A DNA stretch of 64,000 bases. Source: an uncultured Gammaproteobacteria bacterium. GTDB lineage: Bacteria > Patescibacteriota > Patescibacteriia > Magasanikbacterales > GWA2-37-8. A model generated the notes under the pieces. It saw only the letters and a program-made list of their open reading frames with translations. It had not been told where the DNA came from and searched no databases. Shown here one piece after another: positions 7,803 to 30,812 of the stretch. The position numbers and the translations under genes are program-made. The DNA lies in assembly GCA_964536615.1 (NCBI GenBank), contig CAZHYG010000002.1, positions 45,000 through 108,999 on the forward strand, given 5' to 3'. Position 1 is the first letter of the stretch. Every line of letters begins with the position of its first letter.

Positions 7803-7853
7803 TCAGATTGACTTTATACGATTTTTTGATACACTGTTTTTACCAAACATGTT

Positions 7854-7943
7854 GGAGAGATGGCTGAGCGGTCGATAGCAACGGTTTACTAAACCGTAGT
7901 CCACGCAAGTGGACCCTGGGTTCGAATCCCAGTCTCTCCGCCA
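7854..7943 (+). tRNA. Type II tRNA (long variable arm), anticodon loop UUACUAA, apparent anticodon ACU (Ser-like, atypical A34)
   Basis: Acceptor GGAGAGA/TCTCTCC + G + encoded CCA; anticodon stem ACGGT/ACCGT at 7881-7897; long variable arm TCCACGCAAGTGGAC; T-arm GGGTTCGAATCCC. Confidence 0.7.
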
Positions 7944-7952
7944 AACACACCT

Positions 7953-8040
<88 letters not shown>

Positions 8041-8070
8041 AATTGAAAATCGGAATGGGATGAGAAGTTT

Positions 8071-8104
8071 ACACCCCAAAGGGGTGAATCCCTCCCTCTC
8101 CGCA
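8071..8104 (+). pseudogene. tRNA 3'-end fragment (duplicate of the last ~20 nt of tRNA-Ser(GCU): T-arm-like hairpin + AATCCCTCCCTCTCCGC)
   Basis: 'CCCCaaaGGGGTGAATCCCTCCCTCTCCGCA' lies 30 nt after the intact tRNA. There is no 5' half. Confidence 0.4.
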
Positions 8105-8110
8105 TTATAA

Positions 8111-8141
8111 AAACACACGCCTAATAAAGCGTGTGTTTTTG
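8111..8141. terminator. Bidirectional rho-independent terminator (ACACACGC-loop-GCGTGTGT flanked by A/T runs)
   Basis: Perfect 8-bp stem with a T-run on the + side and an A-run upstream (a T-run on the - strand). It sits between the tRNA array (+) and the 3' end of the ATP-grasp gene (-). Confidence 0.6.
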
Positions 8142-8190
8142 CGATGATCAAGAGGAAGAAAATATGAAGTGAAAATTTGTATTAAAAAAT

Positions 8191-9243
8191 TTAAGACCTA
8201 AGCTCCGGAAACATGAGATAGACAAATTCTTTGGTTACCTCTCGAGATTTGCCCTGCATCGGCAGATCATGCATCGCAAACTCAGGCGCGGAATTCATTT
8301 CTATAATTGTATATGTTTCTACAGATTGTGGCTGAGAAAGATCTTTGCACATAAAGTCAATCCCCGACCAACTTAGACCCGGAATTGCTCGAACTGCATC
8401 AATTGCAATTTGCTTAACAGAAGGGTGCGCATTATCAGTTCTATCAACAGCAACACCACCAGCCATAATATTTGAAACTTTTTGCAAACGCACTAACTGA
8501 TCCTTTTTTGGAACAGATTTTTCGGTTAAATCCTGATCTTTAAGCAAGGCAACCGAATTATGATCTAACATAATATGAGGGTACAAATGCTGCGAGATAT
8601 TTCTCAACGGCTTTGTATTTTCAACCTCAATCAACTCACTAACTGTATGAACACCGTCACCGATAATATGGGCCGGGATTCGCTCCATAATGGCAAGCAC
8701 TTTTTCTTGGGTGGCCATAATACGATATTCGTGCCCAACAAACATTTCCTCCAAAATAAGGAGGCCTGGATATAATGGATTTTTAAAATATAATCGAATT
8801 TTTTCTAGACATTCATTAAAATCAAAGAGTTCCATTTCAACACCTTTTCCATGCGATCCTTTTGCAGGCTTAAGAACTAGCGGTTTTTGCAGCGAATCCC
8901 ATATTGATTTAATTCGATCATCGGAATCTGATTGATATATAGTATATCCAGGCATCACAGATAAACCTGATCTTTTAAGCATTACTTTGCATAACTGCTT
9001 ATCGTAGCAAGACTCCACGCCAGTAAAATTAGTAGTACTTGGAATTCTTTCTCTAAAAGTTAGGATTTTATTTTTATATTGCAATTGCACAACGTCGGTA
9101 TCAGGTATCACAAAAGCACTAACACCCATCTTTTGGGCCTCTTCAATAATCATTTGAGTGGACAAAAATGGATCAATTTCCTCTTCTTGCACTTCTCCTT
9201 CGGGTAAAGACCGCACGAAATATAACGGTTTAGATAGCGACAT
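8191..9243 (-). CDS. ATP-grasp fold ligase (RimK/cyanophycin-synthetase-like)
   Basis: ATP-grasp central/C-terminal motifs ('LVLKPAKGSHGKGV', 'IIEMNSAPEF'); 350 aa. Confidence 0.6.
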   Translation of the reverse strand: MSLSKPLYFVRSLPEGEVQEEEIDPFLSTQMIIEEAQKMGVSAFVIPDTDVVQLQYKNKILTFRERIPSTTNFTGVESCYDKQLCKVMLKRSGLSVMPGYTIYQSDSDDRIKSIWDSLQKPLVLKPAKGSHGKGVEMELFDFNECLEKIRLYFKNPLYPGLLILEEMFVGHEYRIMATQEKVLAIMERIPAHIIGDGVHTVSELIEVENTKPLRNISQHLYPHIMLDHNSVALLKDQDLTEKSVPKKDQLVRLQKVSNIMAGGVAVDRTDNAHPSVKQIAIDAVRAIPGLSWSGIDFMCKDLSQPQSVETYTIIEMNSAPEFAMHDLPMQGKSREVTKEFVYLMFPELRS

Positions 9244-9285
9244 ATACTATAAGAATATCCTTAACAAAAAAATAAAAATTAAACT

Positions 9286-10224
9286 CTAAGATAACGCACC
9301 GACAAGCATCTCCGCCATAGCATCCATATACCTGCGAGCATCATCCGATAAAGAAGGCACGCAAACTGCTGGGCGCGAATTTAGCTCAACAAGTTTAAAA
9401 CCTTGATCTGAATTAACAAAATCTGAAGCAAAAATACTTGGACGATACTGCGCTAACTGGAGATTAATTTGCTGAACCATAGCAAGCAATGCAGGGGGTA
9501 TTTGTTCTAGCCGAACCTGAACTTCGCTGCCTCCCTGCGAGACATTTGCCAAAAAAGAACCCGGTTTAGGCACTCGCACCAACATAAAAACCGGATTACC
9601 GTTGATAGTAATAACCCGAATGTCATGCAAACCATCTACAATACCCGGGATACCGACAGAGTTATCTATAAATTCCTGCAGCAAAACATCATTCCAATTA
9701 TCGTATAAGGATTCACTGATTTCGGATACTGGTCGTATATATATGCCTCGCCCGCCGGATAAAAAGTTTTTCTTTACAACAATTTTATCTGCTTGTTTTA
9801 ATTCCCATCCATTAACTACCTGTTCGTATTCTTTATATGAGTGGATGGCGGCGGTTTTAGGTGAAAAGTCTGGAAAAAGCTCAGCGGTAGCGACTTTATC
9901 AACGCAAATCTGATCTAAGTCAGGATGATTAATAATAGCACAATCGTAAATTGCAGGAATTGTATTCTTATCATCACGATTAAATATTAAATCTACGGCG
10001 ATTGGTTCATCTATCGCCACCATAACCCCATCTCGTATCTGCCAACCATTAGAAAACACTCCTTTTCCTACATAAGAATTACCGCGCACTATGTATACAG
10101 CAATATTATGCTGCTCGATATTTTTAACAAGACCTTGATACACTTCCCAGTAAGGATATACGGGAGAATTAAACGGATACCCCATTGGCTCCGGATCGGA
10201 AAAATAAATTGCTAATTTTTTCAT
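9286..10224 (-). CDS. RimK-like ATP-grasp ligase
   Basis: 'KIVVKKNFLSGGRGIYI', 'LVELNSRPAV' ATP-grasp signatures. Adjacent to a second ATP-grasp gene. Confidence 0.65.
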   Translation of the reverse strand: MKKLAIYFSDPEPMGYPFNSPVYPYWEVYQGLVKNIEQHNIAVYIVRGNSYVGKGVFSNGWQIRDGVMVAIDEPIAVDLIFNRDDKNTIPAIYDCAIINHPDLDQICVDKVATAELFPDFSPKTAAIHSYKEYEQVVNGWELKQADKIVVKKNFLSGGRGIYIRPVSEISESLYDNWNDVLLQEFIDNSVGIPGIVDGLHDIRVITINGNPVFMLVRVPKPGSFLANVSQGGSEVQVRLEQIPPALLAMVQQINLQLAQYRPSIFASDFVNSDQGFKLVELNSRPAVCVPSLSDDARRYMDAMAEMLVGALS

Positions 10225-10327
10225 AGTACCTATAACAATAACTCTAACTCCTCAACCTGTCAATTATATTATTGTCTGAAAAAACACCCTGTGATATAGT
10301 AGATTTCTAATCCAAGCTATTCATTTT

Positions 10328-11854
10328 ATGATACAAAAAATACTTGCGGTTTGCGCACTTGCCTCTTTAGCAAATAGCATCATTTCCATACCCGCGTCTG
10401 CTCAAAACACCCAACTTATCGCACCGCAAGAAAACACCGGTTTTTTTCTTGACGCGAAAATTACGTCTGAAAAGAATATCAGAATAGATAAAAAAGCAAT
10501 CTTTGACGCTTCAGAGTCAGTTCTATCAACCCCCACTCTCCCGGCTGAATACATTTGGGATTTTGGCACCGGACCTAAAATAGAAGGCAAAGAAGTAGTG
10601 CGGTCATTTTCTACAATTGGAAAACAGACAGTAACGCTTACTATTCGCCAAGCACAAACACAGGTCAGCACACAAAAAGACATATTTGTGTTTAATAAAA
10701 AAGCATTGCTAATTGCTGACCAGACCAATGTCCCTGCCATTGAAAGCATACAGGCCCAAGCAGCGGAAAATGGCATAGCTTTAGAATTACTGCCAACTGC
10801 AGAAAAGGAAGGAACACTACTCACTGAAGACGCGCTGGTACAAAAAATCAAAGAGGCAACCGATTATATTAAAGATTCAGATATCCTTATTTTTTACACC
10901 CAATCCCCTGTTGGGCTTCAAGCATTTAATTTGTATTGGCGCGATCTTGACCCGGCTACAAAAGAACTGGTCAAAAATAAATTTTTTACGGTTATTTCAG
11001 ATAATAATTTGGATACGGCTGCCAATTTAGCGTACCAGACATTTAATATCATAGAACCAAGCTATATTTTACTCACTCGCCCCGAGGCCATCAATCCGAT
11101 TTTTCTCGCCAAAGACACATCTGATGTGACCGGCATATTGGCGAATCGCGGCATTGAATATAAAATTATTGACAGACGGGGTGAAAAATCTCCGCTATTT
11201 GTACTCTCTCATTTTGTTACCGACCTGGTCTCTCAAGGAGTGTCCTCAAATATTATTTATATAATCTTAATCGTGCCTTTTTTAGCCTGCATTGCCTCAA
11301 TCGCCAAACAAGTTGTGGGTATTAGTGCGTTTGGCGTGTACACCCCCATTATTATCGCCATCTCATTTTTTATTCTTGGCTTGAGATTGGGTATTATCGC
11401 TTTTATCTGCGCAGTAATAATTGGCTATGTTACAAAATATATTCTTAATAAATTTGAACTTTTATACTTGCCAAAAGTGGCGCTAAACTTGGCTTTTATC
11501 AGTTTATCATTCTTGTTTGTCATCTGGCTGGCTCTGGAATACGGCACTTCGGTGCCCCTGTCTATAGCCGTATTTCCGATGCTTGTTATGTCTACGGTAT
11601 CTGAGAAATTTATGGCTGCGCAAAATGAAGAAGGTGTGCGCAGCGCCTTACTGGCAGTTGCGGGCACGCTTTTTATCGTTATCACCTCATATTATTTTGT
11701 AACTTGGACATATATCAACAATGTTCTGCTTGCCTGGCCGGAATTGGTTTTTGTACCAATACTTATCACCATAGCTCTTGGTAAATTTACCGGCTTACGT
11801 TTAGTTGAATACGTTCGCTTTAGAACTTTACTTACCGAACACCAAGAAGAATAA
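10328..11854 (+). CDS. Secreted/periplasmic PKD-like domain protein fused to a C-terminal ~7-TM module (7TM module of the type reported with amidoligases)
   Basis: Signal peptide; 'YIWDFGTGPK..VTLTI' PKD-like motif; roughly 7 hydrophobic helices in the last ~220 aa. Divergently transcribed from the ATP-grasp genes. Confidence 0.5.
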   Translation: MIQKILAVCALASLANSIISIPASAQNTQLIAPQENTGFFLDAKITSEKNIRIDKKAIFDASESVLSTPTLPAEYIWDFGTGPKIEGKEVVRSFSTIGKQTVTLTIRQAQTQVSTQKDIFVFNKKALLIADQTNVPAIESIQAQAAENGIALELLPTAEKEGTLLTEDALVQKIKEATDYIKDSDILIFYTQSPVGLQAFNLYWRDLDPATKELVKNKFFTVISDNNLDTAANLAYQTFNIIEPSYILLTRPEAINPIFLAKDTSDVTGILANRGIEYKIIDRRGEKSPLFVLSHFVTDLVSQGVSSNIIYIILIVPFLACIASIAKQVVGISAFGVYTPIIIAISFFILGLRLGIIAFICAVIIGYVTKYILNKFELLYLPKVALNLAFISLSFLFVIWLALEYGTSVPLSIAVFPMLVMSTVSEKFMAAQNEEGVRSALLAVAGTLFIVITSYYFVTWTYINNVLLAWPELVFVPILITIALGKFTGLRLVEYVRFRTLLTEHQEE

Positions 11855-11855
11855 T

Positions 11856-14204
11856 ATGGTTTTGCCAAATTTTCATAGGCAATCTTTTTTTAACAGGCTT
11901 TCGGGCGTACTCGGAATTAACGCGCGCAATTTATTATACATCAGCAGATTCAACAGCAAAGCAAACAAAAATTTTGCTGATGATAAAATGTTTACAAAAA
12001 ATTATCTGCGCTCCCGCGGCCTTGGGGCAGCCAAGGCATTTACGGTTATTAAGAATTACAACGATCTAAAAAATTTTAACCCAAAAAGCTTGCCTGATAA
12101 TTTTGTCATAAAACCAAATCACGGATATGGCGGCGAGGGTATTATCGTATTCACAGAAAAACACCATGGCCGATTTATTGACATTGCTGGAGACATATAC
12201 GACTGGCCGCGAATCCACCGCCATATTTCTTCAATCTTAGACGGTGAATATGCTATTTCCGGCTTAACTGATCAAGTTATTATTGAAGAACGATTAATTG
12301 CGCACTCATTTTTTAAACCGTACATTGCCAATGGATTACCGGATATTCGTGTTATTGTTTTTAATTACATACCGATTATCGCCATGTTGCGCTTACCCAC
12401 CCAAGCCTCACATGGTAAAGCAAACTTGCATCTAGGAGCTGTCGGACTGGGTATTGACATCGCTACCGGAACGGCAACTTATGGCGTATACCAGCATAAA
12501 CTAATACGCACCTTGCCAAATGGAGAAAAATTAGCACAGATAAAAATTCCGCACTGGGATGAAATACTGCTAACTGCTGCTCATGCGCAAAAAGTAAGCC
12601 AGATTGGTTTTTTGGCAGTAGACCTAGCACTCACTACCTCGGGCATAAAAATTCTTGAGCTTAACGCGAGAGCCGGACTTTCAATTCAAATTGCCAATCA
12701 AGTGCCTTTGAGGGCGCGCTTAGAAAAAGTGAGCGATCTAAAAATTGCATCCCCTGAAAAAGGTGTAGAACTCTGTAAAACATTGTTCGGGTCACATACG
12801 CCAGCGGAAGTAAAACATAATAAAGATACGCATGTTCCTATTAGCTTATTTGAACATGTGGAAATACTGAATACAAATCATAGCTCTGTATTAGCAAAAA
12901 TTGACCCTCATTACGATGGCGCGTTTTTTGATAACAGCCTTAAACCTACAGACGCGCACGATGCATTTCTCGGTATTAAATTAAAAACCAAACGCCTTAC
13001 ACTGCCTGCAAATTTTGGCGATTTAAGCCAGCATAATTACAAAATAATTATTGGCGGTAAATTTCTTGAAGGTTTTAGTATTTATAGCCATCCTAATAAA
13101 AATATTTCAGTACTCGCTCCTGCCACAGACACAACTCGTGAAGAAAAAATAATTGCCAATATTGATAAAAAAATATACGAACTTGATAAAAAAATAAGTA
13201 TTGCTAATTGTCTGCGCCCAATTAACCACGATCAGGAAAAACAAACTTTTTTTGAAAATAGATCCGGATCTCCACAATTTAGATATCGCCCTCTCACCCT
13301 CCCGTTTGCACATCTTAAAAAAGAGCTTGAATCTCTACCAGAATCACACCACACGCTCTATCCAATATACAAACAAAAAATTAAAGAAGTTGGCTTAAAG
13401 CTCAGCCTGCTAGAATCAATGGATACTCCATCCTTTCAAACCGCCTCAGAACAACTGTACGGAGCCGCCAATCGCGTCTTATATGACCAGGCCACACGCT
13501 ATATACATGAACATCCGTTTCAACCCGATACGAGCGACCTGATAAGCTTTAAACAAATTATTAAGCGTCTATCCGTATTTTTAGAGGAGCATAAACTTAC
13601 TCACTGGCGCATAAAAAGCTCTGCCGACCGCGTAAACGATATTTCGATTAGCCTTGATGGAACAATCCATATCCGCACCGGAGTAACGTTTACCGAAAAT
13701 CGCTTGCGCGCCGTAATCGCTCATGAAATTGAAACTCATATTTATCGCGCCGAAAATAGCCATTTGCAAAAATATAAAATTTTTGAAACGGGCACAGCTG
13801 GATATATAGCTACCGAAGAAGGTTTGGCTGTATATAACCAGAACGCGCTCGGCGTACCGCTCGGTGAAAAAGAAATCTGGGCTCCACTGCGTTCCATAGG
13901 GGCGTATTTGGCGCAGGAAATGTCATTTGCGGAGCTGTTTGATTATTTAAAGACAAACTATCAGCTAGAAGACGAATCCGCTTGGCGCACCTGCGTAAAA
14001 GTAAAACGAGGCATTTCCGATACCAGCCAAAAAATGGCATTTACCCGGGATACTATTTACTTTACCGGCTTTCAAAAAATATCTGAATTTATGCGCAACG
14101 CTTCGGCTGAAAAAATTAAATACCTATACTTAGGAAAAATCGGTATTGATGATTTGGAAAATATCGGCCCCTTAAGCCAATATAAAATTAAATATTTAAT
14201 TTAA
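11856..14204 (+). CDS. ATP-grasp ligase fused to a DUF1704-type putative metallopeptidase domain (HExxH; 'EEGLA' = QEGLA-like motif)
   Basis: N-terminal 'FVIKPNHGYGGEGIIVF', 'ILELNARAGLSIQ' ATP-grasp motifs; C-terminal 'IAHEIETHIYR' (HExxH) and 'GYIATEEGLAVYNQ'. Start set to ATG 11856 (MVLPNF) to avoid overlap. Confidence 0.6.
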   Translation: MVLPNFHRQSFFNRLSGVLGINARNLLYISRFNSKANKNFADDKMFTKNYLRSRGLGAAKAFTVIKNYNDLKNFNPKSLPDNFVIKPNHGYGGEGIIVFTEKHHGRFIDIAGDIYDWPRIHRHISSILDGEYAISGLTDQVIIEERLIAHSFFKPYIANGLPDIRVIVFNYIPIIAMLRLPTQASHGKANLHLGAVGLGIDIATGTATYGVYQHKLIRTLPNGEKLAQIKIPHWDEILLTAAHAQKVSQIGFLAVDLALTTSGIKILELNARAGLSIQIANQVPLRARLEKVSDLKIASPEKGVELCKTLFGSHTPAEVKHNKDTHVPISLFEHVEILNTNHSSVLAKIDPHYDGAFFDNSLKPTDAHDAFLGIKLKTKRLTLPANFGDLSQHNYKIIIGGKFLEGFSIYSHPNKNISVLAPATDTTREEKIIANIDKKIYELDKKISIANCLRPINHDQEKQTFFENRSGSPQFRYRPLTLPFAHLKKELESLPESHHTLYPIYKQKIKEVGLKLSLLESMDTPSFQTASEQLYGAANRVLYDQATRYIHEHPFQPDTSDLISFKQIIKRLSVFLEEHKLTHWRIKSSADRVNDISISLDGTIHIRTGVTFTENRLRAVIAHEIETHIYRAENSHLQKYKIFETGTAGYIATEEGLAVYNQNALGVPLGEKEIWAPLRSIGAYLAQEMSFAELFDYLKTNYQLEDESAWRTCVKVKRGISDTSQKMAFTRDTIYFTGFQKISEFMRNASAEKIKYLYLGKIGIDDLENIGPLSQYKIKYLI

Positions 14205-20245: not shown

Positions 20246-20890
20246 CTAACCTTTGGCAAGCACCAACCCGTGCACTTCTCGCACACCAGCATCGCGCAGC
20301 ACAAGCGCGCACTCTCCCATGGTTGACCCAGTCGTAAAAATATCATCAATCAAAATCACTTTTTCCGGCACTTTTCTTTTACTCTCAAAGCTAAAAGCTC
20401 CTTTGGTATTTTGCATCCGCTCTAATCCGGATAATTTTGCTTGCTGTTTGGTGTATATATTACGACGCAGCATATGCGCCATCGGCACATCATAGATTCG
20501 TGAACATATATTCGCGATCGCCTCCGCTTGATTAAATCCGCGCTCACGATATCGGCGGGGATGCAGTGGCACTGGTACGAGCGCATATCCTGCCAAATCA
20601 AAAGAAAATATTTTTTTACGCATAAGGCTCTCTAAATCAGACAGCACATCCATTGCAAATTGATATTTTAACAAACGCGCCAATTCTGATATCGGATTAT
20701 CTCCATATTCGGATAAAAAAATCAGGCTATCTAAGCCTGCTCCTGGCGCAACTAAAAAACTACGGATTTGCGACTGATCTGATTCAGCCTGCAAACACTG
20801 AAGGCATAACCACTCTCCTTCTTGTTTGCATACCACACACAACTTTGGAAATAAAATATCAACCAAAAAAGAAACCCTCCTGTGAACCAT
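20246..20890 (-). CDS. comF: ComF-family protein (phosphoribosyltransferase-like, N-terminal Zn finger)
   Basis: 'CVVCKQEG..CLQCL' Zn finger; PRTase motif 'VILIDDIFTTGSTM'. Confidence 0.75.
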   Translation of the reverse strand: MVHRRVSFLVDILFPKLCVVCKQEGEWLCLQCLQAESDQSQIRSFLVAPGAGLDSLIFLSEYGDNPISELARLLKYQFAMDVLSDLESLMRKKIFSFDLAGYALVPVPLHPRRYRERGFNQAEAIANICSRIYDVPMAHMLRRNIYTKQQAKLSGLERMQNTKGAFSFESKRKVPEKVILIDDIFTTGSTMGECALVLRDAGVREVHGLVLAKG

Positions 20891-20893
20891 ATG

Positions 20894-21478
20894 CTAATTC
20901 CAAGTTAACGTGTTAGCCAGCCAAACACTTTCTATTTTTTTCATGCCAACCGTAACGTCTTGATACATATTTTTAATAGATCCATTTTTATTTTCCGTAC
21001 GCACAGTTTTTAAAACAACCGTAGCGGCATCACCCGACCAATCTGAAATTTGCGTACTGGCAACTTTGGTAGTAACGCCAAAAAAAGCAGTGTTGGTATT
21101 TTTAGTTTTCATAGCCGCGCTTATTTTTGTCCATAAGGCTGGCGTTACCAGTGTTTTTACTTCCAAAATATTTTGAAATTCATTATCTGTGGAATATGTG
21201 CCGTAGCGTTCAACCACAATCTTAGCAATCTGTTCTACGCTATTTTTTTCCAACTCCTCTGCGGTAAGGGGTTTAACTGGAGTGCCTGCGGGTATAACCG
21301 TAGCACCAGGCTGAGTTATTTGTCCGGATGAATTGTTATTAGATGTGGTGGAAGTAGGCTGTGCATTTGAAGATAGATCATTTTTCTGTTTGCCGCGCAC
21401 AAACAAAAATATGCTGACTGCTAAAATAAACAGAATAATAATGCTGAGAATAATGAAAATGCGAGCGCGCAGGGACAT
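20894..21478 (-). CDS. Hypothetical membrane-anchored protein with Ser/Thr/Asn-rich linker
   Basis: N-terminal TM helix and low-complexity linker. First gene of the T4SS-like cluster. Confidence 0.4.
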   Translation of the reverse strand: MSLRARIFIILSIIILFILAVSIFLFVRGKQKNDLSSNAQPTSTTSNNNSSGQITQPGATVIPAGTPVKPLTAEELEKNSVEQIAKIVVERYGTYSTDNEFQNILEVKTLVTPALWTKISAAMKTKNTNTAFFGVTTKVASTQISDWSGDAATVVLKTVRTENKNGSIKNMYQDVTVGMKKIESVWLANTLTWN

Positions 21479-21500
21479 ACAATAAAATTAAAATTGATAA

Positions 21501-23375
21501 TTATTTGGTTTGTTGTTCAAACTCTCGCTTAGAACGTTCTATTTCTAAAAGCTGCTCAGGATTGGTGGTTACGAGCTGATCTTCAGTATATGAAGCCACA
21601 ACTTTAATAGCTGCATGCTTGTTGCCGGCAAAAAATATCCCCTCCCCAACTCCGCTTTCCAATAATAAATACTTTTCTCCTTCAGTAAGAATAAAGACTT
21701 TCTGGACTAAATCAATTGCAGCCGGAGATTGGCGCAACAATAGCTGCAAAGCCGAGTTGGTTACGATAGCTTGGCCATACTGTGATTTAAGAAAATCATT
21801 AACATCCTGAGTAATGGTGGTAACGCCTAAATAATACTTGCGCGCGCGTTTAACTAACGCAAAAATAAATCGGGCGCTATCTTCATGCTGCATGAGCCAC
21901 CACGCCTCATCGATAACCAGCAGTCTTTTTTTGCGTTCGGAACGAACCACATTCCAAATATAATTAATAATGGCATATATAGACATTGGCCGTAGCTCAT
22001 CTTCCAAATCACGAACACTAAATACCACCAACTGATTTTTCATATCCACATTGGTTGGCGCATTGAACAACCCGCTAAATGTACCTTCGGTGTATTTCTT
22101 GAGGCGTAACACCAAATCTCCAGACCCTTCCATGCCTTCTAAAATTTCTTGCAAATCCTGAATAATTGGCGGCTGCACTATCTGCAAATCAGCTTCGGGA
22201 GTAATATCTTTCTTGGCATAAGTTTCAATTAGGGCTCGATCAATAATTGAGTCCTGCTCGGTAGTTAAATTTCCAAGCATGATTCGCAATAGTCCTTTTA
22301 CGGTAATAACCGCACCGCGAATTATGTCCTCAGTTGAAAAATCTTCACCACCAGTTGGTCGAGGCAAATCAAACGGGTTAACCTTGCTTTCTGAAGACAA
22401 AGAAATATTTATATATGTGCCGCCTACCGCATCTGCCAAATGCTTATATTCCATTTCAGGATCTATCACTATCACGTCAACACCCATCATCATGCTTCGC
22501 AAAATCTCCAACTTAATGGCATAACTTTTACCGGCACCAGAGGTAGCAAAAACAGCCATATTGGCGTTTTGCAAAGAGAATCTATCAAACAGAATAAGAC
22601 TGTTGTTATGGCGATTAACTCCGTATAAAATACCATCGTCTGAGGTAAGTTCCGCGGATGTAAATGGGAATGAGGCGGCAATTGGCGAAGAATTAAGGTT
22701 AAATGAAACCATAAGCTCATCATTGGCTAATGGCAATGTAGAGTTGAAACCCTGTTCGGCTTGGTATAGTACTTTACGGCTATTTATTAACTTGGAACCA
22801 AAAATATTTTCCACATCTTCGGAAACCTGATCAAGCTCTTCTTTGGTTTTCGCGTACAAAGTTACATAAAAAGCGAATTGGAAAAAATGCTCAACACCTT
22901 GGGTTAAATCATCTCGCAACTGTTCAATATCGCGCAAAGCGGTTTCTCGCACCGGATCGCGCGGGGCGCCTTTTTCTGAATCTGCCGTAAGCTGCGCTTC
23001 AAGCGCGCCGACTTTATTGCGCAGTTGTTTTAAAATAATAGCTGACTTGACTGGGTAAAAAAACATTCCCACATCCATGGTAATAGACAAATTAAGCACC
23101 GGCGAGCTCCAGCCAATAGAAATATATCGCGGATATGTAACAACAAAAAGAGTACGGCACACAATATTGCCGAGCTGCACATAACTTGGCTCAACATTAA
23201 ACGCAGAAGGTGCCAGCAAGTCTTTTATAGAAACCGTACCCTCTCTGTAGGCGCGCTCCTCTTCTAACGTTACTAGCTCTTCATTTGATTTTTTTTCAAT
23301 ATCTTCTGCCTTATTCTTAAACAAGCCCTTGCGTGCAGGAGCGGCGGTGTTGGAAAATTGTGGTTTAAAAGCCAT
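21501..23375 (-). CDS. VirB4/TraC/TrbE-family ATPase (T4SS-like), ATPase core
   Basis: Walker A 'FATSGAGKSY', VirB4-type Walker B 'LLVIDEAWWL'; 624 aa. Confidence 0.75.
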   Translation of the reverse strand: MAFKPQFSNTAAPARKGLFKNKAEDIEKKSNEELVTLEEERAYREGTVSIKDLLAPSAFNVEPSYVQLGNIVCRTLFVVTYPRYISIGWSSPVLNLSITMDVGMFFYPVKSAIILKQLRNKVGALEAQLTADSEKGAPRDPVRETALRDIEQLRDDLTQGVEHFFQFAFYVTLYAKTKEELDQVSEDVENIFGSKLINSRKVLYQAEQGFNSTLPLANDELMVSFNLNSSPIAASFPFTSAELTSDDGILYGVNRHNNSLILFDRFSLQNANMAVFATSGAGKSYAIKLEILRSMMMGVDVIVIDPEMEYKHLADAVGGTYINISLSSESKVNPFDLPRPTGGEDFSTEDIIRGAVITVKGLLRIMLGNLTTEQDSIIDRALIETYAKKDITPEADLQIVQPPIIQDLQEILEGMEGSGDLVLRLKKYTEGTFSGLFNAPTNVDMKNQLVVFSVRDLEDELRPMSIYAIINYIWNVVRSERKKRLLVIDEAWWLMQHEDSARFIFALVKRARKYYLGVTTITQDVNDFLKSQYGQAIVTNSALQLLLRQSPAAIDLVQKVFILTEGEKYLLLESGVGEGIFFAGNKHAAIKVVASYTEDQLVTTNPEQLLEIERSKREFEQQTK

Positions 23376-23400
23376 ATATTAAATTACCCAATTATCATAA

Positions 23401-24081
23401 TTATTCTGTGCGCAATTCATTAACCGGAGGCAGATGTTCGCTAAACGCGATATCGGGGTTATAGGTGGAATAAAACAACTCAATAAGCGATTGTGTATCC
23501 AGCCGCACCACCTCTAAATTCATACTGGTAAGGCCGGATTCAATCTGGCGCACCCGCATATCCAAATCATGTTTGCGCAATTGAAATCTTTCGTCCTTTA
23601 ATTTAATGGTTACCGCCGGATTAACCACTTCTTTTATGCGAGACCAAAATCCTTTTTTATTATTTGAAAGTGGGTCGTATGGCACAATCACAAAAAACTG
23701 CTTGCTCATAATATTGCCAAGACTCACCAATTCGGAGACAAACGAACGATAATCGGCAATTTGCACACGCAATAATTCGTTGGTTTGTTCACGCTCTTGT
23801 TTGAGCAGTTTTTCTAAATATGGCTTAATATATAGTTGTCGGGATTGCACCACAATTTGCAAAGGAAAATCAATACCGTTTAAAAATGAAACGTACGATG
23901 AAACAATCGCGTTTTGCTCATCTTCATTTTTAAGCGCAAAATTGATACTGGAAACCAAAAGAATGGCGCGCAGCGTTCCGTCTTTCATCACCACCGTATC
24001 AAATTTTATTTCCGCAAATGGCAAATGATTTTGCGCGCTTTCAATTTTTATATTGCCTTTTTTTACCCGTTCTTCTGGCAT
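23401..24081 (-). CDS. Hypothetical protein; possible detached N-terminal domain of VirB4
   Basis: 226 aa ORF 25 nt upstream of the VirB4 ATPase core; the two together add up to full VirB4 length. No motif recognised. Confidence 0.3.
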   Translation of the reverse strand: MPEERVKKGNIKIESAQNHLPFAEIKFDTVVMKDGTLRAILLVSSINFALKNEDEQNAIVSSYVSFLNGIDFPLQIVVQSRQLYIKPYLEKLLKQEREQTNELLRVQIADYRSFVSELVSLGNIMSKQFFVIVPYDPLSNNKKGFWSRIKEVVNPAVTIKLKDERFQLRKHDLDMRVRQIESGLTSMNLEVVRLDTQSLIELFYSTYNPDIAFSEHLPPVNELRTE

Positions 24082-24087
24082 ATATTT

Positions 24088-24522
24088 TTATGGTTTTTGT
24101 TCCCCGCTATAATATCCGCCCGTATTAACAATCAAGGATAAATCGCGAATACGGCTGTATGACATTTTTGGCATTTCTTTAACAGGTTCTGTAGATACAA
24201 CCGATACCGATTTGATAGCGTCTAAGAGCTCTTGTTTTTCATGCATTTTATGCCAAATTCTTCGGCTCGGACGACGTAAAGTTTGCACAATATTTAATAA
24301 AAAATAATGGAATGACTGTCCATTAATTTTTACAAATGCCAAAACTAAAGCCAAGCCACCGATAAGCACTGCTAAAAAAATAAACAATGCCGTATCTGCC
24401 CATTTAAAAGCAGCAGTCAATATTAATCCAGTCACAAGTAAAATAACAAACTGCCGCGTTGTAATAGGGCCGAAAATTTTGTCTTCAACTTCTATAAATT
24501 GTGGAACTACAAATTGATCCAT
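24088..24522 (-). CDS. PrgI/VirB3-like small two-TM membrane protein
   Basis: 144 aa with two hydrophobic helices, immediately upstream of the VirB4 ORFs as in Gram-positive-type T4SS. Confidence 0.5.
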   Translation of the reverse strand: MDQFVVPQFIEVEDKIFGPITTRQFVILLVTGLILTAAFKWADTALFIFLAVLIGGLALVLAFVKINGQSFHYFLLNIVQTLRRPSRRIWHKMHEKQELLDAIKSVSVVSTEPVKEMPKMSYSRIRDLSLIVNTGGYYSGEQKP

Positions 24523-24527
24523 AAATT

Positions 24528-25631
24528 TTATAAGGCTGATTCAATTTCAATTATCGCCATCACCTCACTTAATTTTATACTATTTTGCGCCGCAAGTACA
24601 TTGGCAATAGTTTTTCTCTCGGCTAGCGATGCGGCCACAGCATTCATATATGCGATATAGAGCGGACAACTATGAAACGCGGCCACACCATCCATATACC
24701 AAACATACGATTCTTCTTTCAAATTAAGGATTTTTTGCAAAACGCGTTTTGCTGCTTCTTCAGGCTTGCTGGAAAGCCGGCGAAAATCTTCTACGGTCAT
24801 TGATCTGATTTCTTCAATCGGCCCCATTTCCATCTCTGAAACTGTTATATCTTGCATAACTGGACGCGCAGACGGCTGAGTACTAATTTTAAAGACAGGT
24901 TCGTTAGCAAGGCTTTCGTTAATAATTTTTGACACAATTTTTTCTTTTTCATTAACGGGAGGACGAGCTGGAGTTGAGTTTTTTGTTCGCACACCTCCAG
25001 AAACTGGCAATACCATTGGCAATTCTGGCGGCTCCACCATTGGCAGCATATGCAAAGCAGATCCCTTGAGTACAGGCACACTCGTATTTTCAGATACAAC
25101 ATTTACAGAAACCTGTCGACAGATATCTAACATTTTTTGGACCTGTAAATCGGATAAACCCAATCCACCATTTTTTACCGGCTTACACAATATATCTTTT
25201 ACTTCATCGTCCGTTTTAATATCTTTAAGACGTGCCAAGACTAAACTTTTTAATCGCCCCTGCAGTTCTGAACCTACTGAAAACCCAAGCTTACGCACGA
25301 CTTCTTCAACCTGCTTTTCTCTTTTTTGGCTGGTGAGCCCACCAGCAGCTGATGCCGGTTTTTTTTCTTCAAGCAGCGAACGAGCATCATCACGCGTCAT
25401 AGCTACCGGCTTAGCCGGTTCTTTTTTTTCTTTTATCTCAACTGTTGTTTTGGAAACAATATTGCGCGCCGGCGAATTACCCGCAGCAGGTGCGTTTTGC
25501 GTCGATGCACGAGCTGGGGCAGGCGCAACCGCAACTGGTTTTTTGGCAGCTTGGGCTTTTTTAATATCGCTTAGCGGCACTTTAGCAAAAGTGCCGTCGG
25601 GGCGTTTTATAGTAATAAGCGGCTCGGTCAT
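24528..25631 (-). CDS. Hypothetical Ala/Pro/Lys-rich protein
   Basis: Low-complexity N-terminal half (APAPARASTQNAPAAG..); no TM helix; sits in the T4SS-like cluster. Confidence 0.35.
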   Translation of the reverse strand: MTEPLITIKRPDGTFAKVPLSDIKKAQAAKKPVAVAPAPARASTQNAPAAGNSPARNIVSKTTVEIKEKKEPAKPVAMTRDDARSLLEEKKPASAAGGLTSQKREKQVEEVVRKLGFSVGSELQGRLKSLVLARLKDIKTDDEVKDILCKPVKNGGLGLSDLQVQKMLDICRQVSVNVVSENTSVPVLKGSALHMLPMVEPPELPMVLPVSGGVRTKNSTPARPPVNEKEKIVSKIINESLANEPVFKISTQPSARPVMQDITVSEMEMGPIEEIRSMTVEDFRRLSSKPEEAAKRVLQKILNLKEESYVWYMDGVAAFHSCPLYIAYMNAVAASLAERKTIANVLAAQNSIKLSEVMAIIEIESAL

Positions 25632-25634
25632 ATG

Positions 25635-26558
25635 TTATATATTCCATTTAAATTGAGCGTCCTGTTCGTCAAAATAGAGTAGGTTTGCAATTTCTGGATT
25701 ATTATATTGTCCTGACAATTCTTGTAGTTTGTTTAAAACAGCTTCTATATCCTGAAATTCTCCAGCCTCGTTCTTTGGAAATTCAGATTCTATCTGGGAT
25801 TTGATTTCTGAAAGCACAGGAACTTGCATACGCACATTTTCCACATCTAACTCTGCTTCTTCATCATTAGTCACGAATAAGGATGCCGGCTCGTCGTAAA
25901 CTTGCGGGTTTAAAAAAACCTCTAGAACCTCTTGCAATTTTTCCACCGTATCTATATCTTCAAAAAAATTAACCAATTCTAGCAATCTATCCACTCCATC
26001 CGCTTTATTGCCTACCCCAAAATATTGTTCTGCCTCTAGTGGAAACAGTATTTGATTTAACTTACTGATAAATTCAGCCATTCGCATGGAATTATCTGTA
26101 CGTTTAAGATCTGCGTATTCCAAAACCAAATCTTTTAACTGCACGTTTTTACCTTGGTACTCCCCTAAAAATTCTTGGGAATTCAAAAAATTATTTCGAA
26201 CTTTAAAATACAGAGATGCTAGACGAGCTTTATCAGCCTTATTAGCGCTAAAAAACCAAAGCATTTCTTTAAAAATATCTATATCTAAAATGATAGCCAT
26301 TGGCGCCTGGCGCGCCATGATTTGTGCAAATACGTCCGCATCAGTAATGGTATCAATAACTTTCCAACTAAGGAGCACATATACCCGAAAATATGTCCAT
26401 CGCCAAACTTTATCTTTTTCATACATGTCCTTGGCAAAAAAACTATCCAGATCTTTCCATGTTTCATAGATACTATCAAAATTGGTATTATTATCAAAAA
26501 TACCTTGTTCAATTTGAACAAACTCTTCAAGCGTTTTTTTCTCAATTACAAGCTTCAT
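25635..26558 (-). CDS. Hypothetical acidic protein
   Basis: 307 aa, Glu/Asp-rich, no recognised domain. Confidence 0.35.
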   Translation of the reverse strand: MKLVIEKKTLEEFVQIEQGIFDNNTNFDSIYETWKDLDSFFAKDMYEKDKVWRWTYFRVYVLLSWKVIDTITDADVFAQIMARQAPMAIILDIDIFKEMLWFFSANKADKARLASLYFKVRNNFLNSQEFLGEYQGKNVQLKDLVLEYADLKRTDNSMRMAEFISKLNQILFPLEAEQYFGVGNKADGVDRLLELVNFFEDIDTVEKLQEVLEVFLNPQVYDEPASLFVTNDEEAELDVENVRMQVPVLSEIKSQIESEFPKNEAGEFQDIEAVLNKLQELSGQYNNPEIANLLYFDEQDAQFKWNI

Positions 26559-26568
26559 ACTGCCTAAT

Positions 26569-29500
26569 TTATTTTTTACGCTTATTCAATTCTTTTAGGG
26601 CTTCTTCAACTTCTTTTATATTATTACCATTTTTCATTCTACCTGTTTCTAGAGCAAACTTAAGCAGGGCCTCTACCCCTCTTTTATCCGGTACTTGTTT
26701 TTCTAAACGACCAAGTAAATCTTGCAAATCCGGAACGCTGCTGTTGTCAAAAATCGCACCAATATCACCCTTAGTGAACTCTTCTACATTTCCTAAATTG
26801 TTCCCAGTTAAACCGACTGCCAATTTTACAAATATATCTTTTGAATCCTCAGATTTGACTACCAACTTTCCATCAACTCCTCGATCCATACTACCTGCAA
26901 AACCAATTACATTTGTAAGTTTAGATCCAGATAAACCATTTTTTCTTCTACCCGCAACATACTCTCTGTCGCCCTTATTTTCTGCATCCACCAAAACTGT
27001 CTTCAGTGTTGCACTATCTATCTTATACAACCCAGCTCTACCCAACGAACCCTGACCAGCAGCTTTTTCATTTTTTAATCTTTTTTGTTCTAACATGGCA
27101 TTCGCCTTATCTCCATATATTTCATTCAATCTTTCTAAAGCTTTTTCTAAACTTGCATGACTGCTTGCATCAACTTTTTCATTTATGAGCTCTGCTAAAT
27201 CTTGAGCTTGTAAATTTCGAATAGCTTGAGGAGTTAGCTCCATTGACTGAGCATTTGACATTCCTACAGCTTCCAAAATTTTGCCTTTAATACCGTCTGC
27301 TACTGCCGCATGAGTACCTAAATTACTTATCTGCATTTCAGACAAACTTCTTTCTAAAATTCTTAAAACTGTTTCTGCGGCTTTTTTAGATTTTTCATCT
27401 TTTGCGCCTGCTATTATTTTTTTCTGGGCTTCGATTCTGGCGAGCTGAGCAGTAGTTTTGGCATCACTCTGAACATAATCGCCGGCCGCATTATGTCTCT
27501 TTATCCTCTCTTCAACTTGATTGTTTATGGTATTTTGCTCGTTATTCGCCTCACTGCTTCTATTTTCATCTCTCAAGACTTTATCGCGTGCTCGAGCGAT
27601 TTGTAAATCTTGCAACTCCTTTACATCAAAATTAAGCTGTTCAGCCATAGCCTTGCTTTTAGCAGGCTCAGTCACTTCTAAACCTTGTTTTAGCAGCTCT
27701 TTTATGGATTCCAATTCTTCAATCTGCTTTTTAGCAGCCAACTCGTCTTCAATTCGTTTTGTTTCTGCTCGCACTTCCGCAGATTTACCTTGTAATTCTT
27801 TCCCTTCATTTCCATGGAGATATTTTTCTAATTTTTCTACTTCTTGTTTTTTATGCTCCTCTCCAACATATTCTTTTTTTACTTTTGCTTCTGCTTTTGA
27901 TTTCATTGATTTATTGAACCGATCAAACCCTTGTCTGGCCTTAAATATATCCATATCATCTAAGCCAAGTTCCCTAAGCTCTTTGTCAACTTCTTCTTCA
28001 GACTTGCCACGCTCTTCACCACGTTCTAAGGTGTGCATTATTTTTTCACGCAATAATTCCATGTTCGCTTCTTTTCCTGCCTTGATATCTGCACCTGTAT
28101 GTTCCAAAAAATGCAACCATTCTTTGGCTTTCTGTTTTTTCATACCAATAGGCAAACTACTTGTACTAGCCAAATGGTCTAACTGCTCATGTTTTGCTTC
28201 AGCGGTAGCTTCCAGATCTTCAGAATAAGCTTTATGGAAAGCACCATATCCAATACCCCATTCCAACCTTGCTCTGGCAAATGTTCTTTTAGCCCAATCT
28301 CCCAAACCTTTCTGATCCACAGTGTCATACTTAATATTACCATGCTCATCTTTTATAATATTACCCTGCTCATCTCTCAAGGCAACTTTTTTCACATATT
28401 TACCCTTTTCATTAACAGCGAAAGTTTTTGAAATTTCCCCAGCCTTAACCGTGCTTTTTGCAAGCCGATCATAATACCAACCTGCTGCCCTACTCTTAAT
28501 ATTATGGCCTCGTCGCTGCCAAGCTTCCCCACCAATCAACGGCATTTTCATTACCGCAAATTTCCCGGCCGCCTTTGCCCCCTCGCCAACTTTACCACCA
28601 GCCCATTTTGCAGCCTGGAAGCCAGATGCGTACATGGCGGCTTTTTTGCCCAACTCACTGGCACTGCCCATCATATGTGCTCCGGCAACGCCAAGCTCTT
28701 CAGCCATTTTTGCCCCAGCCATTAAAATTGCAATGGCGATAATAAAATTTCCCATGTTTTCCCAACTCATTACTTCTGTAATACCTGTTTGTTCTTCGGC
28801 GGGTGCAGCTGATTCTTGCAACAACTGCCCTTGTTTAAGCGAATTATGCTTCACAATATCATCGTGAATATTTCCAGAACCAACTGTAACAAAAGAAAGC
28901 CAGAGAAAAAACGCGATTACCGGACCGGAAACAACGTTACTATTAAATTTTCCCCACCATTCACCGGCAAAATGTTCGGTTTGATGTAATACATTTAAAA
29001 CAAACGCAAATGGAGAAACCACGATAAGCACCCACAACATGGCCATGCGCGCCACAATCATAAACAAAAACGCCAGCATGGTGATAAGCATTGTTACCGA
29101 AAACATGATGGCCGCTACAGAAGCTAGAAAAATTGAAGCAGTGTCTCCGGTAAAATTGTCTCCATTGCCAAGTTTAAATATTTTATCTACCTGAAACATG
29201 TTGACCAAGTTGCCGCTGGCGGTGGCGGCGATACCGTTGAGAAATGTAACCATAACAATCTGCGCCACATCTATGATAAGACCGCAAATTAAACGGCTAA
29301 AATTAACGAGCACAGCTGCTGTAACCAGCTTAACCAGCATATGTTTCCATTCGTAGTGATCCAGACCAAGAATGGTACCGAATGCTATCATTAAAAGCAC
29401 AACCACAAAAAACATATTGGTGAGATCGCGAATCATAACCCAGCCAACCGTAACTGCCGGAGAATCTATGAACCCATTGTAACCAGCGACTTCAATGATA

Positions 29501-29757
29501 AATTTGAGAACAAAAAACGTAAGCTTGATACAAAAACCTGCCAACAAAAATAGCAGACCAGCAAATGCCTTGCCGATAGTTTCGCCAACACCACTTAACC
29601 AACCAGCTTGCGCAAACGGAGCAAAAACAAACCAACTAGTGATGATTGCGCTGGTAATTATAATAAAACTAACTAAGCCTAATTTTTTATGAGAACGAAA
29701 AAAAGACCAGAGCTGTCTGAAAATTAAACGCGCCTGTAGTGCAAATTGAGCAAACAT
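26569..29757 (-). CDS. VirB6/TrbL-like polytopic membrane protein with ~700 aa charged coiled-coil C-terminal extension
   Basis: N-terminal ~350 aa with multiple TM helices; then a long K/E/A-rich heptad-like region (KELQDLQIARARDKVLRDE..). Confidence 0.55.
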   Translation of the reverse strand: MFAQFALQARLIFRQLWSFFRSHKKLGLVSFIIITSAIITSWFVFAPFAQAGWLSGVGETIGKAFAGLLFLLAGFCIKLTFFVLKFIIEVAGYNGFIDSPAVTVGWVMIRDLTNMFFVVVLLMIAFGTILGLDHYEWKHMLVKLVTAAVLVNFSRLICGLIIDVAQIVMVTFLNGIAATASGNLVNMFQVDKIFKLGNGDNFTGDTASIFLASVAAIMFSVTMLITMLAFLFMIVARMAMLWVLIVVSPFAFVLNVLHQTEHFAGEWWGKFNSNVVSGPVIAFFLWLSFVTVGSGNIHDDIVKHNSLKQGQLLQESAAPAEEQTGITEVMSWENMGNFIIAIAILMAGAKMAEELGVAGAHMMGSASELGKKAAMYASGFQAAKWAGGKVGEGAKAAGKFAVMKMPLIGGEAWQRRGHNIKSRAAGWYYDRLAKSTVKAGEISKTFAVNEKGKYVKKVALRDEQGNIIKDEHGNIKYDTVDQKGLGDWAKRTFARARLEWGIGYGAFHKAYSEDLEATAEAKHEQLDHLASTSSLPIGMKKQKAKEWLHFLEHTGADIKAGKEANMELLREKIMHTLERGEERGKSEEEVDKELRELGLDDMDIFKARQGFDRFNKSMKSKAEAKVKKEYVGEEHKKQEVEKLEKYLHGNEGKELQGKSAEVRAETKRIEDELAAKKQIEELESIKELLKQGLEVTEPAKSKAMAEQLNFDVKELQDLQIARARDKVLRDENRSSEANNEQNTINNQVEERIKRHNAAGDYVQSDAKTTAQLARIEAQKKIIAGAKDEKSKKAAETVLRILERSLSEMQISNLGTHAAVADGIKGKILEAVGMSNAQSMELTPQAIRNLQAQDLAELINEKVDASSHASLEKALERLNEIYGDKANAMLEQKRLKNEKAAGQGSLGRAGLYKIDSATLKTVLVDAENKGDREYVAGRRKNGLSGSKLTNVIGFAGSMDRGVDGKLVVKSEDSKDIFVKLAVGLTGNNLGNVEEFTKGDIGAIFDNSSVPDLQDLLGRLEKQVPDKRGVEALLKFALETGRMKNGNNIKEVEEALKELNKRKK

Positions 29758-29950
29758 TTTTTAGCGATTATGTTGTATGCATTATACCATATTTTTAACA
29801 CGTCAACAACGCAAAAACATTAGTAAAAAATATGTGGATAAAAATATTATCGCGGGCTTGCATATTGCATTTTGGCATGGCCTATGTATAATACATATAT
29901 ACCTTTTTAGCGGCATATACGCGTATGCACTGTTTATGATGTGCTATAGA

Positions 29951-29979
29951 TTGACAAAATTGTTAAAAAGGTGTATACT
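29951..29979 (+). promoter_or_regulatory. Near-consensus sigma70 promoter TTGACA-17-TATACT
   Basis: TTGACA at 29951-29956, 17-nt spacer, TATACT at 29974-29979, in native AT-rich DNA pointing toward the GC-rich island. Confidence 0.45.
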
Positions 29980-29985
29980 TGTTAG

Positions 29986-30002
29986 TTATCCATAATGGAT
30001 AA
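29986..30002. promoter_or_regulatory. Perfect 17-bp palindrome TTATCCAT-A-ATGGATAA (candidate operator) at the predicted TSS
   Basis: 8-bp perfect arms around a single central base, 7 nt downstream of the -10 element. Confidence 0.4.
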
Positions 30003-30165
30003 TCGTTCTTTACAAAGTGCTGAAACGAGCAAAACTGCTAGTTTTAGCCAAATAATGAGTTACTACTGAAGACGCCTCTGGGCGAATATTTGCTTCTCTT
30101 CTAGACAAAGAGAGGTAGTTATTCGCCTAGAGGATTCAACTTCCCCCTCTGGGTAGGAGACCGCC

Positions 30166-30696
30166 ATGAGCAAGTCGTCCGTCAACAAGACCGCCGCGCT
30201 CGTGCGCGGCATCGTCCTGAGCATCCTCGTGATGCTCACCACCCTCCTCGCCGCCTGCGGCGGCGAGGACGACCCCATCGGCGACGCCACCACGTCGCCT
30301 GACGGCCCCGTCCAGCTGGACGGCGGCATCGACGCCATGTCGCCCCCCGATGCGCCGCAGCTGGACGTGTGCCAGCAACAGGACCCCCCTCCCCAGGGGG
30401 CGTACGTGATGAACGGAAAGAGCCTGCGGTGTGGCGCAAACGCCATGCCTGGAGACCACAACTCGTGGATCTTCGCCGGCTCCTCGGAGTTCTCCTGCAA
30501 CCTCGATGTCCACCCGGACACCGAAACGGGCGCAATTTGCGTCGTTCTGTGTGATGGGCACTTCGGCGCAGACTACACCAACCTGGTGGTGGAACGAGCG
30601 GGACTCCAAGGCCCCTACCGCTTCTACTACACCCCGCCGGGAGACGTGATGGAGTACGTGTGCTACGATCCGAGTACGCTCCCGTCTCAGTCGTAA
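30166..30696 (+). CDS. Small lipoprotein encoded in strongly GC-rich, foreign-composition DNA
   Basis: Signal peptide + 'LLAAC' lipobox; third codon positions almost all G/C; GGAGA RBS 8 nt upstream. Surrounded by AT-rich native sequence. Confidence 0.6.
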   Translation: MSKSSVNKTAALVRGIVLSILVMLTTLLAACGGEDDPIGDATTSPDGPVQLDGGIDAMSPPDAPQLDVCQQQDPPPQGAYVMNGKSLRCGANAMPGDHNSWIFAGSSEFSCNLDVHPDTETGAICVVLCDGHFGADYTNLVVERAGLQGPYRFYYTPPGDVMEYVCYDPSTLPSQS

Positions 30697-30800: not shown

Positions 30801-30812
30801 TAAAATATTATT

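Follow-up and report, generated by a model that had tools for sequence, protein, structure and literature searches.

The 64,000-nucleotide stretch of DNA analysed here (the window) encodes a tRNA-Ser with the anticodon ACU, which is likely to be a functional elongator tRNA and a member of an old, conserved isoacceptor family of the Patescibacteria (CPR), in which A34 would most likely be left unmodified and would serve to read AGU beside the GCU isoacceptor. An A at position 34 in the Ser-Arg split box has been described as “universally missing” (PMC8007984), and the initial annotation of this locus took A34 outside tRNA-Arg(ACG) to be essentially absent in bacteria; that statement stands for the literature but not for Patescibacteria and phages. 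The gene lies within a small locus with the following features:

7808 to 7835, forward strand: candidate sigma-70-like promoter (TTGACT, 16 nt, TACACT, with TG before the -10), from a consensus match
7854 to 7943, forward strand: tRNA-Ser(ACU), class II, encoded CCA (ARAGORN, Rfam, sequence and fold)
7953 to 8040, forward strand: tRNA-Ser(GCU), encoded CCA (ARAGORN; Rfam, 51.6 bits)
8086 to 8103, forward strand: additional direct copy of the final 18 nt of tRNA-Ser(GCU), GAATCCCTCCCTCTCCGC (original at 8021-8038)
8109 to 8140, forward strand: terminator-like hairpin, AAAAACACACGC, loop CTAATAAA, GCGTGTGTTTTT (sequence and fold)

ARAGORN called only two tRNAs in the window, tRNA-Ser(act) and tRNA-Ser(gct), and placed the act anticodon of the first, at 7854-7943(+), at tRNA position 35, which corresponds to 7888-7890. 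The Rfam tRNA model, which has a gathering score of 29, matched the same stretch with 59.0 bits (E 1e-11) and placed UUACUAA at the anticodon loop. As read from the sequence, the acceptor stem GGAGAGA/TCTCTCC consists of 7 bp, perfectly paired, and is accompanied by G73 and an encoded CCA, while the D-arm has C11-G24 and a loop with GG. The anticodon stem ACGGT (7881-7885)/ACCGT (7893-7897) encloses the loop TTACTAA at 7886-7892, that is U32 U33 A34 C35 U36 A37 A38; the variable region of 18 nt forms a helix of its own of up to 6 bp, and the T-arm reads CTGGG-TTCGAAT-CCCAG. Folded as a single sequence (-37.8 kcal/mol, z -3.96), the tRNA forms the acceptor, anticodon, variable and T helices. 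The gene has the 7-bp acceptor, 5-bp anticodon stem, U33 and GTTCRAATC T-arm of a class-II elongator tRNA-Ser cloverleaf, together with a long variable arm that forms its own helix, and it shows neither the truncation nor the mismatched acceptor of a pseudogene or att fragment, being full length with an intact acceptor. Apart from the wobble base, everything tested conforms to an ordinary class-II tRNA-Ser. ARAGORN, Rfam and the fold thus agreed with the initial annotation on a canonical type-II tRNA with a 7-bp acceptor, CCA, long variable arm and T-arm; its reading of ACU at 7888-7890 from the stem ACGGT/ACCGT was reproduced by both predictors and by covariation, with ARAGORN giving the anticodon act and assigning no different anticodon stem; and the neighbouring tRNA-Ser(GCU) that it had noted was called by ARAGORN as tRNA-Ser(gct) at 7953-8040.

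Proteins encoded in the window are 72-82% identical to those on Candidatus Magasanikbacteria contigs and on TPA MAGs titled ‘uncultured Gammaproteobacteria’ that cluster with them, and the window ABC-F protein is 76% identical to one on a Magasanikbacteria locus (L003). These identities place the window organism among the Magasanikbacteria-type Patescibacteria (CPR). In the MAGs named ‘uncultured Gammaproteobacteria bacterium’ (L004, L013, L015, L016, L020, L064 and about 25 others) the tRNAs and proteins are likewise of Magasanikbacteria type, and the ‘Gammaproteobacteria’ titles of these records are probably a taxonomic mislabel. The window also encodes SufCBDS, GroEL, IF-2, NusA, RF, LeuRS, TruB, KsgA, TsaC and a VirB4-like ATPase. 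The leucyl-tRNA synthetase (56837-60307, reverse strand; 1156 aa) has an unusual architecture, in which the editing and anticodon-binding domains are separated by two insertions, a NUDIX domain (419-523) and a serine-hydrolase domain (603-774). Directly 3' of the tRNA pair, the region 8191-14204 encodes two RimK/ATP-grasp proteins, a membrane protein with PKD and 7TM_transglut domains, and a 799-aa protein in which ATP-grasp_ST is fused to a MATCAP-like carboxypeptidase domain; this cluster might act in the ligation and trimming of peptide tails, and in other genomes it does not accompany the tRNA. The region 20246-38426 on the reverse strand contains a VirB4/TraG-like ATPase (21501-23375), several ORFs without a Pfam match and an ORF of 2537 aa, and in other Magasanikbacteria loci the VirB4-like gene is found no more than a few kb from tRNA-Ser(ACU).

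The distribution of the gene was determined by scanning species-representative genomes with a pattern that combined a Ser-type D-loop, a YTACTAA loop and a GGTTCRAATCC T-loop at class-II spacing. Matches were obtained on at least 119 contigs, which belong to about 116 genomes (roughly 100 from Patescibacteria), and ARAGORN called tRNA-Ser(act) in 118 of the 119 contigs among the matches listed. Every family member was drawn by this ACT-requiring pattern, and the constancy of A34 in the lineage is not independent of the search. Among the matches listed, about 99 ACU genes fell into two sequence clusters with almost entirely CPR titles, in which the names are Magasanik-, Paceibacteria/Parcubacteria, Kaiser-, Nomura-, Yanofsky- and Saccharibacteria, together with the mislabelled MAGs; those of Levyi- and Vogelbacteria were lone singletons, and the remaining ACU genes comprised a Polynucleobacter/Burkholderiaceae cluster of nine and scattered singletons. 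For the singletons of Luminiphilus and Legionellales, a close match exists among the viral contigs. A pattern built on the family anticodon arm, with position 34 left free, recovered only ACU genes from the fetched loci. In metagenomes it recovered 115 G34 genes and one A34 gene, mostly non-CPR-looking tRNAs, so that the arm is not family-specific; these counts show only that ACU is rare overall.

Polynucleobacter sp. (L007, L008, L096, L098, L117) and two further loci (L009, L115) carry the tRNA-Ser(ACU)-like genes of the Polynucleobacter/Burkholderiaceae cluster, one Polynucleobacter strain having four contigs with such genes. The acceptor stems of the copies in L007 and L008 are unpaired, and the genes of this cluster are 86-87% identical to viral-contig copies and look like island or prophage junctions.

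For all ACU tRNAs among the matches listed (119/119), the nearest neighbour in another genome was itself an ACU tRNA. Identity between the ACU tRNA and the GCU tRNA of the same locus averaged 0.65 (range 0.53-0.76, n=61), and mean identities were 0.78 for ACU-ACU, 0.63 for ACU-GCU and 0.68 for ACU-UGA comparisons. Since ACU genes have each other as nearest neighbours and are only distantly similar to GCU genes, they are not recent G34A derivatives; by these comparisons, they form an isoacceptor family of their own, as old and as distinct as the other Ser isoacceptors.

A structural alignment of 86 distinct CPR-type ACU sequences was then used for a covariation test, from which the U32-A38 and U33-A37 ‘pairs’ returned by RNAalifold were left out as loop artefacts. 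The canonical cloverleaf was paired in 99.8% of cells, with changes on both sides in 18 of the 25 pairs, and the covariation score was 0.54, as compared with 0.16 in shuffles (reached by 0 of 500) and 0.05-0.08 in slid registers. Within the anticodon stem, pair 27-43 is G-C in 63 relatives and A-U in 22, pair 29-41 is A-U in 52 and G-C in 34, and the pairs C28-G42, G30-C40 and U31-A39 are invariant, in a stem that the search pattern left unconstrained. All five modelled pairs of the variable-arm helix covary (5/5). The anticodon loop is nearly invariant, with a single U32C, in a search whose pattern had fixed YTACTAA, and the D-loop GG and GGTTCRAATCC are conserved, the latter being part of the search pattern. 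This combination of conserved structure and compensatory changes points to purifying selection at the level of the family; it is what a functional, SerRS-charged decoder would show, as opposed to a pseudogene or a tRNA whose anticodon is unconstrained.

In E. coli the SerRS identity set consists of G73, G1-C72, G2-C71, A3-U70 and C11-G24, while Tyr and Leu class-II tRNAs have A73; in studied systems, recognition by SerRS depends on the variable arm, on G73 and on the acceptor stem, not on the anticodon. Across the alignment, G1-C72 and G2-C71 were present in 86/86 sequences and A3-U70 in 83/86, with G73 conserved; C11-G24 was found in 70/86, and in the remaining 16 both bases are altered with pairing retained. 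For the window gene, comparison of identity elements (G73, G1-C72, G2-C71, A3-U70, long variable arm) upheld the Ser assignment of the initial annotation over Leu or Tyr. SerRS would thus presumably charge tRNA-Ser(ACU) via the variable arm, G73 and the acceptor stem.

The GCU gene lies downstream of the ACU gene in the window, at a distance of 9 nt. Among the matches listed, 62 ACU loci had a tRNA-Ser(GCU) gene on the stretch fetched (up to 8 kb); the distance was at most 700 nt in 51 loci and at most 100 nt in 34, and both gene orders occurred. The two tRNAs share class II, G73, G1-C72/G2-C71/A3-U70, a long variable arm and the amino acid, as well as the loop U33...C35 U36 A37 A38. They differ in that the ACU family has A34 in place of G34 and a body that is only about 63-65% identical and belongs to a separate family; furthermore, A34 cannot wobble onto C, so AGU-only reading is expected of ACU. 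The promoter candidate is located 18 nt upstream of tRNA-Ser(ACU), and one such match was found where 0.9 were expected in shuffles. The hairpin at 8109-8140 is followed by a T-run, and the fold of 8041-8150 has a z of -7.0; a simple terminator scan did not list this hairpin. From this arrangement, the ACU and GCU genes likely form one two-tRNA operon closed by the candidate terminator hairpin, and the ACU gene would probably be co-transcribed with its neighbour.

The 18-nt copy at 8086-8103 resembles an att-type scar, as would be left at a hotspot of integration. In a sister strain (ERZ4216102 NODE_161), an island of ~5.9 kb lies between two full copies of tRNA-Ser(GCU) (L473, 11612-11699 and 17640-17727) and encodes an HTH protein, a HinfI-like endonuclease, a D12 methylase, a DpnI-like protein, an N4/N6 methylase and a 733-aa SMC_N protein. 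It thus appears that the 3' end of tRNA-Ser(GCU) serves as an integration hotspot.

The genetic code was examined through GroEL. The AGA/AGG codons at positions 12, 117, 283 and 394 of the window GroEL align with Arg residues of a solved chaperonin (R12, R117, R283, R394), that at residue 136 aligns with a Lys, and conserved Ser residues are matched by the AGU/AGC codons at 78, 241 and 357. This alignment indicates that AGR encodes Arg and AGY encodes Ser, so that the code is standard, and it rules out a reassignment of AGA to Ser. Window ORFs (18,896 codons) use AGU at 11.3, AGC at 11.9, AGA at 6.4 and AGG at 2.1 per 1000. AGU enrichment was not found in them, their AGY U-fraction of 0.49 being among the lowest of the NNY boxes, and a simple codon-demand argument is therefore weak in this organism; pooled CPR loci have AGU at 14.4 versus AGC at 8.7 per 1000, an AGY U-fraction of 0.62.

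In the decoding scheme that we propose, tRNA-Ser(ACU) would read AGU by a Watson-Crick A34:U3 pair and tRNA-Ser(GCU) would cover AGC while still being able to wobble on AGU, with the Ser/Arg split of the AGN box staying standard. A37 would probably be t6A-modified, and a TsaC/Sua5 gene of the t6A pathway at 42360-42965 fits the invariant U36-A37 of the ACU family. The ACU tRNA looks redundant, as the neighbouring G34 tRNA could in principle read AGU; the simplest advantage, as a conjecture, would be that AT-rich genomes with few anticodon-modifying enzymes gain a cognate decoder for a U-ending codon that is common in them. Expression, serylation, the absence of inosine and AGU-specific decoding are properties that we infer for tRNA-Ser(ACU) from sequence.

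Engineered tRNAs with the same anticodon behave in the way proposed here for the window tRNA. An orthogonal M. jannaschii ACU tRNA placed in E. coli read AGU at 9.4% and AGG at 0.36%, with AGC and AGA below detection; no inosine signal was present, TadA needing an ACG-type loop (PMC11066159). A Ser-tRNA(ACU) on the native E. coli backbone was tolerated, with better growth in some media (bioRxiv 10.64898/2026.05.15.725136). These constructs are thus AGU-specific, free of inosine and neutral to beneficial for fitness, but they are artificial, and their authors treat ACU as absent from natural bacteria.

The alternative that survives best, though we consider it unlikely, is that TadA or a relaxed relative converts A34 to inosine, giving an ICU anticodon that reads AGU, AGC and, weakly, AGA. 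Bacterial A34 tRNAs are normally inosine-modified (PMC8007984), and A-to-I conversion has been inferred for a split-box Phe-tRNA(AAA) construct in E. coli (bioRxiv 10.64898/2026.05.15.725136). Like the TadA-dependent inosine-34 tRNAs (Arg ACG, and Leu AAG in some Lactobacillales), the ACU tRNA has a genomically encoded A34; those tRNAs, however, serve four-fold boxes and have a G36 recognition loop, whereas ACU has U36 and sits in a box split with Arg. The loop of the window tRNA, U32 U33 A34 C35 U36 A37 A38, differs from the Arg2-type TadA substrate loop U33 A34 C35 G36 A37, and TadA requires an ACG-type loop, the ACU variant having given only T in E. coli (PMC11066159). Nor does the box tolerate I34 on U, C and A, AGA being Arg at conserved positions: since I34 would also pair with A, ICU would place Ser at AGA codons, which are used at 6.4 per 1000 and occur at universally conserved Arg positions of GroEL, and this argues against I34. 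Furthermore, tRNA-Arg(ACG) was absent from the 279 tRNAs of the related CPR loci, some of which carry tRNA-Arg(GCG). A TadA-like ORF was found in 0.89 Mb (window plus genome loci) only once, in an Opitutales locus, a sample too small to be telling. tRNA-Arg(GCG) was seen in three Patescibacteria loci (L017 5649-5721, L025 3778-3854, L090 3556-3628) and tRNA-Ile(UAU) in seven (L012, L027, L031, L058, L065, L092, L097). The occurrence of Arg(GCG) and Ile(UAU) without Arg(ACG) is a weak hint that decoding in these lineages may rely on neither TadA inosine nor TilS lysidine. On this evidence, A34 of tRNA-Ser(ACU) is probably left unmodified.

An A34 that stays unmodified has a precedent in Mycoplasma, where tRNA-Thr(AGU) is reported to keep its A34 in this state; as with the ACU tRNA, A34 is used in translation in reduced, AT-rich bacteria. 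Such tRNAs operate in family boxes, in which misreading is harmless, whereas ACU operates in a split box from which A34 is said to be missing throughout (PMC8007984). Genomic Thr(AGU) and Leu(AAG) genes are also listed for Leuconostocaceae, with their modification unstated (PMC8007984).

The same pattern applied to IMG/VR identified tRNA-Ser(ACU) on at least 120 contigs. Among the matches listed, most lie inside phage tRNA arrays together with Thr(UGU), Gly(UCC), Leu(UAA), Arg(UCU) and Ile(UAU), a GCU partner is present in 4 of 119 viral ACU loci, and the viral copies are diverse, with a mean pairwise identity of 0.70 and at most 79% identity to the window gene. With position 34 left free, the viral pattern matched 105 GCU and 15 ACU genes among the matches listed (12.5% of 120), as compared with 1 ACU in 116 for a related, stricter pattern in bulk metagenomes. 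Per 1000 codons, AGU and AGC number 21.2 and 10.0 in ACU viral loci as against 12.9 and 12.6 in GCU viral loci, with an overall AT bias that differs too. For isolate phages, BLAST with the window tRNAs returned mostly GCU, UGA and other Ser tRNAs, and ACT was confirmed only in Rhizobium phage RHph_TM30, for which RefSeq annotates ‘tRNA-Ser(act)’ (NC_070966.1 128636-128725; L470 1501-1590). This phage tRNA shares its anticodon and class-II Ser body with the window gene, and such phage copies occur in genomes that are AT-rich and favour AGU; the phage copies differ in residing in tRNA arrays, usually without a GCU partner, and in their diverse sequences. Other A-starting anticodons were observed in the viral arrays (L242-L361) among the matches listed, namely Leu AAG (five), Asp ATC (two), Asn ATT (two), Thr AGT, Phe AAA and Ser AGA.

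Given how common tRNA-Ser(ACU) is on viral contigs, the window gene might be recent phage or mobile-element cargo at a tRNA integration hotspot and not a core gene, as would also be suggested by the adjoining hotspot with its att-like repeat, by the restriction-modification island of the sister strain and by the phage- or island-borne appearance of the Polynucleobacter, Legionellales and Luminiphilus genes. We regard this as improbable. The window tRNA is 89-93% identical to those of other Magasanikbacteria-type genomes, as opposed to at most 79% for the sampled viral copies; the sister-strain island sits downstream of the GCU gene and not around the ACU gene; and the family spans several CPR classes with its GCU linkage retained. 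The diversity of the viral copies and their distance from the window gene imply that the CPR family is not simply recent phage cargo.

Similarly improbable, in our view, is that the seryl-charged tRNA is used mainly outside translation, as a Fem/MurM-type cross-bridge donor or by another aminoacyl-tRNA transferase, with an anticodon that is irrelevant. Dedicated non-proteinogenic isoacceptors are known in staphylococci, CPR envelopes are Gram-positive-like, and the ACU tRNA looks redundant for decoding. The hallmarks of cell-wall tRNAs (degenerate D- and T-loops, a weakened EF-Tu-binding T-stem and a free anticodon) are nevertheless absent: the 86 sequences keep G18G19 and a canonical T-loop. 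In addition, their anticodon loop, which varies by one U32C, and the three invariant pairs of the anticodon stem are as expected for a ribosomal decoder; a FemAB-like domain was not found in the 40 window ORFs scanned; and phages, which need translation capacity, carry the same anticodon.

Although the two genes are adjacent and a single G-to-A change turns GCU into ACU, it is extremely improbable that 7854-7943 reflects faulty sequencing or assembly, or a copy of tRNA-Ser(GCU) undergoing decay, because independent assemblies carry the identical sequence, the two genes differ at about 35% of positions, and all helices are intact and covarying. The A at 7888 recurs in two other assemblies (ERZ4216102 NODE_161 and ERZ27286469 k141_4199539), whose contigs were reached via the upstream ABC-F protein and are the same DNA through the ACT anticodon, and both tRNAs of a GTDB species representative (L064) are 100% identical to those of the window. 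Identical sequence in independent assemblies, together with a conserved family, rules out a sequencing error and a recent G34A change; a recent G34A mutation of the neighbouring GCU gene is likewise at odds with an identity of only about 65% between the two. The initial annotation had left three options, of which the G-to-A sequencing error falls on these grounds, and the mis-fold falls because ARAGORN, Rfam and covariation all return the same anticodon stem. The Rfam alignment, together with the covariation seen for pairs 27-43 and 29-41, ruled out an alternative anticodon register. The third option, a real variant, is borne out by the identical gene in other assemblies and by the conservation of the family across roughly 100 Patescibacteria genomes.

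Such genes are evidently being labelled by annotation pipelines already. In the literature covered, which is incomplete and leaves most subscription journals outside, we came across no account of a tRNA-Ser(ACU) occurring naturally in bacteria or phages. The rarity of A-starting anticodons in bacteria is an open question that has been attacked with engineered E. coli (bioRxiv 10.64898/2026.05.15.725136), and the natural ACU family, with about 100 Patescibacteria species plus phages, provides test material for it. The family raises the questions of the state of A34, of AGU specificity and of which enzymes (TadA, MnmE/G, TilS) are absent, and is relevant to models of codon usage and tRNA adaptation and to the heterologous expression of CPR and phage genes.

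More tentatively, and as a possibility to which we give somewhat less than even weight, Patescibacteria and many phages may maintain a dedicated Watson-Crick decoder of AGU with a truly unmodified A34 in a split box. The tRNA-Ile(UAU) and tRNA-Arg(GCG) genes of CPR genomes fit such a decoding style of one codon, one Watson-Crick tRNA. If this were true, the near-universal avoidance of ANN anticodons would reflect not a ribosomal or structural prohibition but contingent causes, such as TadA-driven miscoding or G34 redundancy, and would be lifted in lineages with pared-down anticodon modification.
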